DNA of 63,802 bases, the filler included, from Chrysochromulina tobinii (Eukaryota), in the NCBI GenBank assembly GCA_001275005.1. It is 12 parts of 12 records of this genome, joined end to end, with 100 filler letters (N's around TTAATTAATTAA, not from the genome) between each part and the next. Parts side by side here need not be neighbours in the genome. Positions count along the whole stretch, not along the records: positions 39,317 to 54,014 come from JWZX01000312.1; 11 more parts are not named here. The stretch is one strand, 5' to 3'. Each line of letters starts with the position of its first letter. The first letter of the stretch is position 1. Below the pieces are notes generated by a model, which did not search any database, was not told the DNA's origin, and saw only the letters and a list, made by a program, of their open reading frames with translations. A program made the position numbers and the translations under genes. Positions 42,898-51,282 of this stretch are shown here, piece by piece.

Positions 42898-45800
42898 ATG
42901 GCGAATGATGAAGACAGCGATGGTGAAGCGGCTCGCAAGCGCCCTCTGGGAAAGCCGCCCATCGGCAGCAACGGTCGGCCTCAGATTTGGAAGCCTGACA
43001 CGGGCTGGGTCGACGAGATGGCGGGCTTCAACCCGTCCGGCATTCGAGGAACTCGAGAGCGTAAGCAGACGCGCAAGGCGCTCGAGAAGGTGGCTTGGCT
43101 TGACGAGGACGACGAGGACGACAGAGCGCGAGCGCGTGCCGCGTCTCACAAGGACGATGACGATTTGACCTTTGGCCTCGGCGGGGCGACTCATCGGAGG
43201 GCTTCGGGCGGCAAGAGAGGCAGCATGACTGTGTCAGCACTTGAGCGCGCACGAACGGCCGCCGCTGCAGCGGCGTCCATGACGCAACCCGTATCCCTGG
43301 CGCCGCCGCCAGCCGACTTCAAGCCTCTCGCCGACCTCAAGGGAGCCAATGCCTCCGACGTCGTCGGCAGGCGAATCCGCACGTGGTACGAGGGCGACGC
43401 AGGCAGCGACGCAGGCGGCGGCGCAGGTGGCGGCGCAGGCGGCGACGCCGGCGGCGACGCAGGCAAGGATGGCTCTGCGACCGTTTGCAGCAGGGGTGGG
43501 CTTGAGCGCCGTGTTGAGCCCGCGGTGGGCATCGTGACGTTCTACGACCCTGCCGGCCGGCTGCACGCTGTGTACGATGGCGAGAACGAGGCCAATGGGC
43601 TCTGGGTCGACGGGGACGACGAATGGGAATGGGTGGGACGCCCTTGATGACGTCTGATTGCCTCTGATGACATCTGATTGCCGCTGATGGCCTCTGATGA
43701 CACCCTTGATTGCTTCCCTCATCAGGTGGACGAGGGCGATCCACTCTTCGCGCCACCGTCGCGGGAAGAATTGTTTGGCAAGTGGAGGGAGGACGACGTT
43801 ACAGAGGAGATTGAGAGGATTTACCTTGTGCGCGAGTCGGCGGCGGAGAGTGAGATCGAGGGAGATCGACTGCGGAGCGAGATCGAGGGAGATCGACTGC
43901 GGAGCCGATCGGCGCCGTCGCCGCCCCAGCTCGACTTCTACGTCAAGTGGAAGGCGCGATCCCACCTCCACTGCCAGTGGGTGCCCAGGACGGCGCTCGA
44001 AGAGGACAATGACCTCAACAAGCGGCGCGTGGCCAAGTTCCTCAAGCAGCTCGCGACCGCGCTCGCGGACGCACGAGCGTACGCCGCCGACGCGGCCGCC
44101 GACGCGGCCGCCGATGCGGCCGCCGACGGCGCGGCGCTCAGCGGCAGCGGCAGCAGAGCGCCATTGACGCGAGTGGAGTCCGCTACTAGCGCCGTCCTGG
44201 GCATGGGCTTCGACGAGCGCATCGGCCGCGCGGCCGTGGATGTCGATGGCCATCCGTGGGAGGCAATCAGACGTCATCAGAGGCAATCAAGAGGCGACCA
44301 CACGGTCCATCCTTGGGAGGCAGGGGAGTCCTCTACGAGCGCCGTCCTGGGCGTGGATGTCGATGGCCATCCTTGGGAGGCGGGGGAGCCGCCTTTCAAT
44401 GCCGACTACTTGGAGGTGGACCGTGTGGTCGCCTCTTGATTGCCTCTGATGACGTCTGATTGCCTCTGATGACACCCTTGATTGCGTCCCTCATCAGGTG
44501 GACCGTGTGGTCGCCTCGCGCCCCTCTGAGCATGGTCTACCGCCCTCGTTTCTGGTCAAGTGGCGCGCCCTCCCGTAAGCGAGCGCTCACCACGGCGCCC
44601 TCCCGTATGCGAGCGCTCACCACGGCGCTACTTGGGGGGTGGCCTCGCATGCAAGCGCTCACCACGGCGCTACTTGGGGAGGGTGGCCTCGCATGCAAAT
44701 GCTCACCACGGCGCTCCGCGCCTCTCTGGTTCCCCACAGGTATGCGAGCGCTACATGGGAGGGTTGCCTCGCCCTCGTCAACCACCAGAGCGCGATCGCA
44801 GCGTTTCGGGCGCGTCAGCGGCCGCCGCCGCCCGGCGAGGTGCTGCTCGCGCTCAACGGCTACCGTCCACCGCCGTCCAACTTCACACCGCTCGCTGCCT
44901 CGCCCCAGTACAAGAATGGCCACGTCCTGCAGCCCCACCAACTCGATGGGCTCAACTGGCTTCTCTTCAGCTGGTGCGGCATGACCCTCCGCGCCTACGA
45001 CGGCGCCCGCGCGCCGCCACCGCACTGCCGCGCTGCCACGTCGCATAGGTTGCCGCCGCTTAGGTTGGCCGCCGTGCGCCGCTGCCACATCGCCGTCACA
45101 TCGCCGCCGCGTTGCGATCTCTTCACACCGCGTTGCGATCTCTTCACAGCGTCTCGCAGTCTCCCTGGCTCCCGTTCACAGCTCCCTTGCTCCCCTTCAC
45201 ACCAGGTACAATCATCGCTCCGTGATCCTCGCCGACGAGATGGGCTTGGGCAAGACGGCCCAGGCCATCGCGATGCTCGACCACATCTGGCGGCGCGAGA
45301 GCATCCGGGGCCCTTTTCTCATCGTCGCGCCGCTCTCGACACTGGCCCACTGGCAACGGGAGATTGAGGAATGGACTGACCTCTCGGTGCTCAATTATTG
45401 GAGACCCCTGATTACCTCTGATGACCTCTGATGACCTCTGATGACCTCTGATTACCTCTGATTACCTCTGATTACCTCCCTCATCAGGTGCTCAATTACT
45501 ACGGTCGCGCCGAGTCTCGCGACGTCATGCATCAGTACGACGTGGCACTGTGAAGGACCCCCTTAGCATGCACGTGCTCACGACGACGCGCTCGCTCCCC
45601 ACAGGTATGAGTGGCACTTTGAAGGACTCGCCGCACAGCCGTCGCCTGCTGCGCCGCAGACGAATGCCATCAGTGGCCATCAGTGGCAGCCGTCCGTGCC
45701 GTTGCCGTCGCCGGGCAGAGGTACCGGTAGGGGCAACGGCCGTGGCGAGAGTGCGCGAGGCGGGGGGCGCCGTAGTGGGCGTGGGCGAGGCTCGACGCTC

Positions 45801-48800: not shown

Positions 48801-51282
48801 TCTGATGACCTCTGATGACTTCACAGATGATTGTTTGGGTGGAGCTCACGTACGACCAGAAGAAGATGTACCGCGCCGTGCTGGAGAGCCGTCGCGACGT
48901 GCTGCTGCACGGGGTGGAGAACGCGCCGCTCCCGTCGCTGATCAATCTCCAACTCGAGCTGCGCAAGTGTTGTAACCACCCGTGAGTCTCGTCAATTGCC
49001 TCTTGATGGCCTCTGATCAATTTCCAACTCGAGCTGCGCAAGTGTTGTAACCACCCGTGAGTCTCGTCAATTGCCTCTTGATTGCCTCTGATCAATCCGT
49101 ACCTTCTCCGGGGCTCCTCGCATGCAAGTCTTGCTCACCACGGCGCGCTCCACCCCCCCCCATTCGTGTTCCCCACAGGTACCTCATACGTGGCGTCGAG
49201 CAATCGATGACGAACCACAAGACAGCGGCGGAGGTGCGCGAGGCGATGCCCCACCCCCCTCCCCGGCCGCATGCAAGTGCTCACCACGGCGCCGCGTCGC
49301 CCCGCTCTCCCCACAGGTACGCGAGGCGATGCCCCACCCTCCTCCCCGCCGCATGCAAGTGCTCACCACGGCGCCGCGTCGCCCCGCTCTCCCCACAGGT
49401 ACGCGAGGCGATGCTCGCGGCCAGCGGCAAGCTCGTGCTGCTCGATAAGCTGCTACCGAAGCTACGATCAGAGGGACGACGCGTGCTCATCTTCTCGCAG
49501 GTGTGCTGATTGAGATTGATTGAGATGGATTGAGATTGATTGACATGGATTGAGATTGATCGGAGGGACGACGCGTGCTCATCTTCTCGCAGTTTACGAT
49601 GATGCTCGCGCTGCTGGGCGAGTTTCTCGACGCCCGTGGCTTCTCGTACGTGCAGCTCGACGGCTCGGTGACCGGCGACGCTCGGCAGGCGGCCATCGAC
49701 CGCTTTTGCAAGCCCGGCTCGTCCATCTTCGCCTTCCTCCTCTCGACGCGCGCGGGCGGCGTCGGCATTAACCTCATCGCGGCCGACACCTGCATCATCT
49801 TCGATAGCGACTGGAACCCGCAGAACGACGTGCAGGCCATGGCTCGTTCACACCGTATTGGTCAGCAGAAGATCGTCAAAGTGTTCCGTCTCGTCACGCG
49901 CAACACGTACGGCGCTCCCAAATTTGGAAGATTCGTCAAGGTCGCTCGGCATGCAAGTGCTCACCACGGCGCCCCCTCCTCCCCCTAATTAGGTACGAGG
50001 CGGAGCTCGTCAAGGCCGCGAACAAGAAGCTCGGCCTCGAACGCGCCTTCAACGCCGACCAGGGCGCTGGAGGCGCTGTCGCGGGCGGCACCGACGACCC
50101 AACGGCCGATGAGCCAACGGCCGACGGGACGCTCATCGACGGTGGCGGAGCGGCCAACGGTGTGAAATCATACAACGGCCCACCGCGCGACCGGGCGGCA
50201 GTTGAGCGCATGCTACGCTGCGGTGCGCAAGACATCATGCTCGACGACGACAGCGCGTTTCGTCGATTCTCTGAGGCGGACATAGATTCCCTGTTGCAGA
50301 GTTCCGTCAGTTCCGTCACGACGAGCGCTGCGACGAGCGCGTCGGCCGGCGGCGGCGGCTCGAGCTTCGCCAAGGTCGCCTTCATCGCCGACGGCGCGCA
50401 GATCGACATGGGCGACCCGGAGTTCTGGGCCAAGGTGCTGCCCGCCGACCTGGTCGAGCCCGGCATGGAGGTAGAGGTAGATGTAGAGGTAGATGCGCAT
50501 CCCCGCCGAGCGCCCACCGCCCTGCCCCGCATGCAACTGCTCACCACGGCGCCCGTCCCTCGTTCCTGTCGTTCCCCACAGGTCGAGGGCATCCCCGCCG
50601 AACGCCCTCGACGGGCTGCTGGGGTGGCCGCCCAGAAGATGCGCTGGTACGTTTATGGCGGCTGATTGCGACTGATGGCGACTGATTGCGACTGATTGTG
50701 TGGCCGCTCAGAAGATGCGCTGGTGCGCTGATTGCGACTGATTGCGACTGATTGCGACTGGTTGCGACTGATTGCGACTGATTGGGTGGCCGCCCAGAAG
50801 ATGCGCTGGTACGCCGCGGTGGAGGCGGGCCTCCCTCCGCATGCAAGTGCTCACCACGGCGCCCGCCCCTCGTTCCCCACAGGTACGCCGCGGTGGAGGC
50901 GGGCCTGCCTCCGGAAAAGGCCAAAGGCGCTGCAGTGGGCGCTGCGGGGGCGTCTGCCAAGCGAAAGCGCCCACCGCAGCGCGACGCCGACGGCGACGAG
51001 GAGGGTGAGATGGATGAGGCGGCGCTCGTCGAGGATTGCGGGGAGTGCACCAACTGCCTCGACAAGCGCAAGTTCGGAGGGCCGGGCCTCAAGAAGCAGA
51101 AATGCAAGGTGCCTGTGCCTGCGGGGACGCGCGCCGCCGTGAGCACCGCCGCCTCCCCCTCCGCCCCCTCCTCCGCCGTCCCCCTCGAAGCTAAGGCATG
51201 GGCAGGAGCAGCGGAAGGGGGGCGCCCGCAGCGGGGGGGGGGCAAGCGCCGTAGCTACGCGGAGTTGGACGAGTGGGAGTAA
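42898..51282 (+). CDS. CHD-family (CHD6-9-like) SNF2 chromatin remodeler, 17 exons, ~2100 aa: Tudor-like, two chromodomains, ATPase, helicase-C, partial CXXC finger
   Basis: Manual splice with introns 43633-43725, 44416-44497, 44575-44739, 44974-45205, 45387-45487, 45535-45604, 45876-45955, 48149-48348, 48443-48528, 48741-48826, 48982-49178, 49234-49398, 49501-49592, 49907-49992, 50471-50581, 50647-50882. This restores [84 protein letters not shown] and TRNTYE. Confidence 0.9.
45876..45955 (+). other. class A intron with exact exon duplication
   Basis: Starts with 33 nt identical to the start of the next exon, then CTGATTACC repeats and CCTCATCAG. Confidence 0.9.
48443..48528 (+). other. class B GC-AG intron with exon duplication
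   Basis: GCACGCCGCTCCAAAA(A/T)AGCACCACGGAG copy of the next exon, GCATGCAAGTGCTCACCATGGCG core, CCCCACAG; removal restores LTGTPLQN. Confidence 0.85.
49234..49398 (+). other. two class B introns in tandem with no exon between them
   Basis: 83-nt and 82-nt near-identical units joined at CAG|GT (49316/49317). Confidence 0.85.
49501..49592 (+). other. mirror-class intron ending in a copy of the upstream exon
   Basis: GTGTGC + (GATTGAGATT)n + 35-nt copy of the upstream exon end supplying the CAG; removal restores [11 protein letters not shown]. Confidence 0.85.

Follow-up and report, generated by a model that had tools for sequence, protein, structure and literature searches.

Exon copies and repeated fillers in the introns of a CHD-type gene of Chrysochromulina tobinii: a possible repair-type route of intron gain

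Many introns in the gene for a CHD-type chromatin remodeller of Chrysochromulina tobinii carry a copy of adjacent exon sequence (here called X) joined to a repeated filler, such that filler is flanked by X on both sides and splicing removes one X together with the filler. The gene (positions 42898..51282, + strand; 17 exons, 16 introns, 2106 amino acids) lies in a window of 63,802 nucleotides, made up of 12 joined parts of the genome assembly GCA_001275005.1; the intron finding lies on the piece of the window at 39317-54014 and draws on a sample of about 30 filler ends. The insertions are real and are spliced, and the sequences compared indicate that the introns of this gene have recently been mobile. 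The X-filler-X anatomy, its exact splicing, a filled/empty pair of sites, and one filler that matches another intron together with its exon copy can all be seen directly. As to origin, we put at roughly even odds (about 0.5) a repair-type templated insertion with target duplication, in which the ends of existing introns act as template.

The 16-intron model reads through 2106 codons without a stop, and the Chromo, SNF2, Helicase_C and zf-CXXC (CXXC) domains are matched on single exons. The nearest named proteins to exon 14 are those of haptophytes (Prymnesium parvum, 79%; Haptolina, 76%), and a 37-row tree places the gene in a haptophyte orthologue clade of 7 rows that includes the P. parvum protein (support 100/99). 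The joints of all introns other than 2 and 16 appear in RNA contigs, each in 2-4 of four runs, so that at least 14 of the 16 introns are spliced out rather than retained and the reading frame is restored, as the original prediction had proposed. Introns 2 and 16 are absent from the best 15 of the 20 matches; both contain in-frame stops (four in intron 2). The spliced lengths equal the modelled lengths except at intron 15, which by RNA spans 50489-50581 (93 nt) and starts at 50489 instead of 50471. This evidence consists of contigs, probably from one campaign, and branch points are beyond their reach. In the neighbouring gene, six joints are found in all three RNA runs, and its depth in the DNA run is 0.

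Filler is present in 15 of the 16 introns (the sole exception being 44974-45205), and the next exon starts with GT or GC after 14 of the 16, both exactly as predicted. Nine introns (2, 3, 5, 6, 7, 9, 10, 12 and 15) start with a copy of the next exon that scores above the null maximum, taken for each intron over 42 mismatched intron/exon pairings. In these nine, the duplicated exonic GT or GC serves as donor and the filler supplies the acceptor. For the gene as a whole, 158 of 320 bases match, against 91+/-10 when permuted (p=5e-5). For the claim that most introns begin with such a copy, the count is 9/16 here and 0/6 in the neighbouring gene, whose six RNA-defined introns show 29 matches in 120 bases against 33 permuted. 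The duplications found measure 11, 13, 16, 19, 20, 29, 31, 33, 35 and 38 nt. Direct repeats flanking the new intron, the mark of break repair, are thus above background (p=5e-5, and the filled/empty pair below), and the short, fixed target site duplication (TSD) of 2-9 bp known from introners resembling miniature inverted-repeat transposable elements (MITEs) is replaced by a variable one of 11-38 nt. Of 9 mismatches between copies and exons, 6 affect the third codon position, a number too small for use.

The individual introns, all on the + strand, range from exact copies to decayed ones. Intron 2 (44416..44497) begins with 20 exact nucleotides of the next exon and intron 7 (45876..45955; RNA 2/4) with 33, each followed by a filler of the family called A. 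Intron 5 (45387..45487; RNA 3/4) has an 11-nt copy and filler A, and intron 9 (48443..48528; RNA 4/4), with a GC donor, has a 28/29 copy and a filler of family B; these four copies stand as predicted. Intron 12 (49234..49398; RNA 4/4) consists of two tandem units of copy plus filler B. The 16-nt copy placed at 49317 is present but lies within the intron: the 165-nt stretch that RNA shows to be spliced out opens at 49234, itself the start of a 15/16 copy. Degenerate copies had been proposed at 44575, 45535 and 48741, and each exceeds all 42 mismatched pairings. They open intron 3 (44575..44739; RNA 4/4; a 12/13 copy, then filler B and additional exon copies as a mosaic), intron 6 (45535..45604; RNA 3/4; a gapped copy and filler B) and intron 10 (48741..48826; RNA 4/4; a 14/19 copy and filler A). 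At intron 15 (50489..50581) a gapped, degenerate copy ahead of filler B does exist, but at the RNA-corrected start. Intron 14 (49907..49992; RNA 4/4) fares less well, its filler B being preceded by a match of only 5 nt that is within the null in this allele; other alleles read YEA or YDA there, like the next exon. Intron 1 (43633..43725; RNA 4/4) has filler A and a match of 4 nt only; it and intron 2 alone carry a particular 3' variant, and the exons that follow them have 6 nt of initial sequence in common. Intron 8 (48149..48348; RNA 4/4) carries filler A with an expanded 10-mer and no significant copy, and intron 4 (44974..45205; RNA 3/4) neither family filler nor copy. Exon and filler overlap by 3-9 nt at the junctions of introns 2, 7, 11 and 13.

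A second polarity had escaped the original prediction. In this mirror class the filler brings the GT donor, and a copy of the upstream exon brings the AG. Intron 13 (49501..49592; RNA 4/4) has a filler starting with GT, and its closing 35 nt repeat the end of the upstream exon at 34 positions, AG included; similar units front the older introns 11 and 16. In intron 11 (48982..49178; RNA 4/4) donor-type filler units and an upstream-exon-end copy precede an older filler-B intron, and this front part is missing in alleles P0004 and P0146 (P-labels denote stored proteins, L-labels related DNA loci that were compared). Intron 16 (50647..50882) contains two donor-type units with upstream-exon-end copies, the first of which varies between alleles, and then an inner unit (50809-50882) with a 30/31 copy and filler B. 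Exact removal of an X-filler-X arrangement is possible in two ways, both of which occur: a GT or GC that opens X can pair with an AG that closes the filler, or a GT that opens the filler with an AG that closes X.

Comparison of alleles and orthologues supports recent turnover. Locus L017 has a 78-nt intron that combines 38 nt copied from the exon (2 mismatches) with filler A, while L018 has a cleanly empty site; in the helicase exon the two loci differ at 6 of 309 bases and the protein there is identical. This is the only clean intron presence/absence in a comparison of 12 locus pairs. In a set of 32 closely related proteins, which were called straight through DNA, five read from the upstream exon through the intron 13 site, and the alleles that lack this intron entirely are 98% identical in protein. 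At an empty site of our allele (49645..49646, + strand), five of the 32 have an extra filler-B stretch and 25 read through; this is a protein-level view, and the 32 are mutually non-independent. That three allele types have the extra intron makes repeated loss as probable as repeated gain, and loss may be as common as gain. Unit number varies too: P0004-type alleles have a single unit in intron 12, and L002 has at least two tandem units in intron 13. More distantly, three sister orthologues show uninterrupted reading in this region, across introns 10-14 in P0151 and P0010 and across introns 11-14 in P0007; their contigs, of 3-12 kb, are presumed to be DNA because the frames start mid-gene. Two features of introners in the broad sense are present: a repeated insert that is precisely spliced (at least 14 of 16 joints), and recent presence/absence at orthologous sites.

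Could the introns instead be ancient, or the duplications artefacts of assembly? One or two positions are common to distant homologues, as antiquity would predict. The RNA joints, the empty sites in alleles and orthologues and the agreement of independent assemblies largely refute this explanation, which we regard as having almost no chance of being right. Identical duplications recur in L003 (identical to the window), in L004 and in the 2%-divergent L002, and DNA contigs, built from short reads, cross 44444-45437 and 49957-50696 without differences.

Exon copies of the same build occur at other, haptophyte-like loci with different fillers. In L014 and L015 an exon copy of 16/17 bases precedes a CCCTAA-like filler, and in L036 two introns with such filler have 8-10 exact copied bases; copies are also found at L008 (internal, 19 nt), L029 (15 nt) and L037 (22 nt). 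Splicing at these six loci is deduced from protein alignment or splice-site context only. That the same build recurs with unrelated, telomere-like fillers argues for a process rather than for a single element. Telomere-like CCCTAA/CCCTAC repeats are found in introns of L036, L066, L014 and L037 (18701-18774), some behind an exon copy; the CCTAAC within them looks like a branch point, and filling of a telomerase type is conceivable. Several candidate introns in L005, L006 and L016 were rejected as in-frame alignment gaps.

Where do the fillers come from? Fillers A and B are dispersed families, 40-190 nt in length and carrying one splice site. The last 45 nt of the introns fall into the two families and the 5' ends are specific to each locus, so that the end-to-end similarity of MITE-like introners is lacking. 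The closest look at a source comes from intron 9, which agrees with the inner unit of intron 16 in 56 of the 58 positions that run to the AG; this segment is not found in the other ten B fillers, 15 of its bases are intron 16's own copy of exon 17, and the exons that follow introns 9 and 16 agree at 8 of their first 9 bases. In family A, nearest-neighbour fillers share 4.67 of 9 next-exon bases, against 3.48 with shuffled labels (p=0.0007). Filler A closes with 7 nt of its own repeat in inverted orientation, and a larger inverted piece, 50 nt identical to the start of intron 2, lies in exon 2 (44260..44309, - strand). It is in frame in the model, about 110 nt from its source, flanked by two 15-nt exon repeats with 3-5 nt junction overlaps; its exonic status is model-based, with no bridging among the RNA matches listed. 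A further filler B is inserted antisense at 12366..12437 (- strand), with a 28-nt duplication and in frame (72 nt), inside a 1319-codon frame on the + strand, which GC3 of 0.87 upstream suggests is coding. The AG marks the exact end of this filler, even though it is the opposite strand that carries the long frame. Its host, at 12016-15876, is a protein with FG-GAP repeats and ephrin-receptor-like sequence that contains 8.5 copies of a 147-nt unit.

The filler patterns are absent from the prokaryote genomes searched, and viral contigs gave no useful match, only a chance one (L083) and a chimeric-looking contig end. The latter (L001:2900-3060) is a phage-like contig terminating in a filler-B intron end, and is probably a chimeric assembly. 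No Rfam match was found within 39317-54014, on which ground the idea that the fillers are structured RNAs was dropped. In the 3' end of the neighbouring gene, a cluster of palindromic filler-B cores in both orientations (39714-39933) is possibly a non-intronic reservoir of filler B.

The variable length of X, the 3-9 nt junction overlaps, the inverted local copy and the intron 9/16 pair all fit repair synthesis that switches to the splice junction of another intron and back. A staggered or resected break would arise in an exon, and a broken end would anneal, through a few shared bases, at the splice junction of a template that may be either DNA or unspliced pre-mRNA. Some 40-70 nt would then be copied from the end of an existing intron before return by microhomology, and rejoining would duplicate 11-38 exon bases as X. 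A perfect intron would result if the filler were a 3' intron end and X began with GT or GC, or if the filler were a 5' intron end and X ended in AG; all remaining outcomes would persist only when in frame. The 10-mer, and entire units, could later expand by slippage, and exact loss through the long direct repeats would be possible as well. One might guess at a polymerase-theta-like enzyme as the agent. Staggered-break repair and target-primed templated insertion were among the mechanisms first suggested. The original interpretation as a whole is partly supported; what it missed were the mirror class, the evidence for copying of fillers from other introns, in-frame antisense insertion into exons, the tandem amplification of whole units and possible loss.

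Target-primed insertion by retroelements leaves duplications of variable length, a constant 3' end and a variable 5' end. All of these features, including one constant and one truncated end, are seen here, and it is conceivable, if unlikely, that machinery of non-LTR (non-long terminal repeat) elements uses the RNA of excised introns as template for reverse transcription where the target is nicked. Priming from the 3' AG would give the common class with a truncated 5' end, internal priming the mirror class, and staggered nicks the variable duplications; the antisense filler at 12366-12437, ending exactly at AG with the long frame on the other strand, would also be accounted for. Introners derived from non-LTR elements have been reported (PMC12130899). 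Yet no reverse transcriptase was found among the 22 other frames of the window that were scanned, and no poly(A) or other 3' tail was seen at the fillers. Moreover, paired introns share bases beyond the AG, which an excised intron could not provide. The family A result would exclude an excised template, although that test was post hoc and the statistics are mixed.

Perhaps the long copies arose in steps instead: an introner with a short TSD inserts first, a tandem duplication then spans its splice site, and the older unit is finally deleted between short repeats. One illustration is an intron of the neighbouring gene (40072..40195, - strand), in which filler A has 9-nt inverted arms near both ends and a 4-nt flanking repeat, and behind it lies a tandem unit that includes 12 nt of copied exon. 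Similar intermediates recur in introns 11, 12 and 16, in intron 13 of L002, and in L005 and L037, and tandem repeats abound in the window, exons included (153 rows). Each intron would require three steps, however, and yet 98%-identical alleles lack intron 13 and L018 is cleanly empty. The part of exon 17 within intron 9 and the inverted piece in exon 2 are also left unexplained, and we judge such stepwise remodelling improbable, on a par with the non-LTR route.

The arms of the intron at 40072-40195 are the only near-terminal ones in 11 regions. In the other ten, inverted repeats joining both intron ends are missing and only internal arms of 7-9 nt occur, so the expectation that the intron ends lack terminal inverted repeats (TIRs), like that of no short fixed TSD, is borne out. 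This tells against fillers A and B being non-autonomous DNA-transposon introners whose long copies are unusual target duplications, as do duplications that vary over 11-38 nt and a 5' end that differs at each locus. The dispersal of both families would suit such elements, and introners are common in metagenome-assembled genomes (MAGs) of Chrysochromulina (PMC9860276); C. tobinii itself is listed with 0 introner families (PMC12130899). We consider a DNA transposon very improbable.

Several points weigh against repair-type insertion. The exon-start test was post hoc and its companions are weak (p=0.07 in family B and 0.066 for reciprocal pairs, with 0.74 and 0.32 in Mantel tests). Filler similarity within a gene is not above that between genes (p=0.13 and 0.26), a result on which the idea that fillers spread mainly inside one gene was also rejected. 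Significant terminal copies are found in none of the six neighbour-gene introns and are lacking from 6 of the 16 CHD introns. Tandem units in which copied exon comes after an older acceptor are frequent (40072-40195, intron 12, L005, L037), and some exon copies may be secondary. The difference between L017 and L018 could reflect either gain or loss. Against pure gain, among 16 loci examined the site of intron 14 also bears an intron in the paralogue L029, as that of intron 10 possibly does in L023.

How do these introns relate to known systems? In Daphnia, new polymorphic introns flanked by direct repeats have been attributed to break repair, and direct repeats are given for 43% of intron gains in a review (PMC4202315, PMC3443670). 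Direct-repeat flanks, parallel gains at one site and later internal duplications and mosaics are common to both systems, but the Daphnia repeats are short and the inserts AT-rich and mostly of unknown source, whereas here the repeats reach 38 nt and provide a splice site, and an insert matches the end of another intron. Tandem genomic duplication of an AGGT-bearing exon (PMC3443670) likewise turns duplicated exon into intron, but takes both splice sites from the duplicate, where here a foreign filler gives one. Templated insertion by polymerase-theta end joining or template switching also yields local direct and inverted copies with junction microhomology, but no link to serial intron birth is made among the papers listed.

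In PMC9860276, introner TSDs are 3-9 bp and families required similarity at both ends; many haptophyte MAG families are given, with at least 15 Chrysochromulina rows, and a Chrysochromulina sp. family has a 4-bp TSD carrying the 5' site. A Symbiodinium introner has TIRs and co-opts its donor from a 4-bp TSD (PMC9860276, PMC12130899), and the small Emiliania huxleyi family fam24 is described as "co-opt 5' carry 3'" with "10bp terminal direct repeats" (PMC12130899). Such donor-co-opting introners, which include haptophyte cases, also take one splice site from the duplicated target and the other from a repeated insert and restore the mRNA. They differ in forming families that are similar end to end with TSDs of 2-9 bp, whereas here only one intron end is shared, TSDs range over 11-38 nt, the two polarities exist side by side and the ends are not joined by TIRs, a separation based on the published descriptions. 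The system thus resembles break-repair intron gain and donor-co-opting introners and stands outside the TIR/short-TSD class; the proposal of a different mechanism holds to that extent, but given the known haptophyte introners and repeat-flanked Daphnia introns it is a variant, not an unrelated system. No account of the exon-copy and filler pattern in haptophytes was found in the literature searched, whose scope did not extend to subscription papers or published introner consensus sequences, and the available portions of PMC11282704, PMC4580454 and PMC12480563 do not describe it. New here are the mirror class, the clean filled/empty pair with its 38-nt duplication, allele proteins without intron 13 or with an extra intron, the intron 9/16 match and the inverted intron 2 piece.

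Some further features of the gene and window deserve mention. Intron load differs sharply between CHD paralogues: the gene represented by L006, L007 and L005 has no introns across the ATPase and helicase regions, against 16 introns here, and L006 matches C. tobinii KOO35301.1 without a difference wherever the two align. A 731-codon, low-complexity exon (45956-48148), rich in in-frame tandem duplications, interrupts the SNF2 ATPase domain at a point where the P. parvum orthologue also carries an insert, though a shorter one. Within exon 8, an 18-nt coding repeat (46333-46396) holds the motif CCTAATATGGCA, which is also terminal in an L008 intron (L008:231-243). At 50884-51279 the protein ends in a CXXC zinc finger, and its last codons and stop form a 41-nt unit repeated 3.6 times. 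In the neighbouring gene, an RNA-shown GC-AG intron (40309-40459) is filled by a 10-mer of the CTGAT family. Elsewhere, the window contains a 7-mer repeated about 73 times (61586-62109), a 360-nt two-copy repeat (57047-57711) and a 103-nt ATGCAT-rich repeat (30726-30949).

Since the source sequence, the target duplication and the empty alleles are all visible, gain and loss of introns become countable at the population level in an alga that can be cultured. Such introns would escape introner pipelines in which similarity at both ends is demanded, which may explain the 0 families listed for C. tobinii, and donors located inside exon-like copies are a warning for annotation. More broadly, and tentatively, prymnesiophytes may gain introns without transposons: intron ends would serve as repair templates one after another (from exon 17 into intron 16, and from there into intron 9) and in both polarities, the fillers would be lineage-specific and include telomere-like ones, and gain and exact loss would be reversible in populations.

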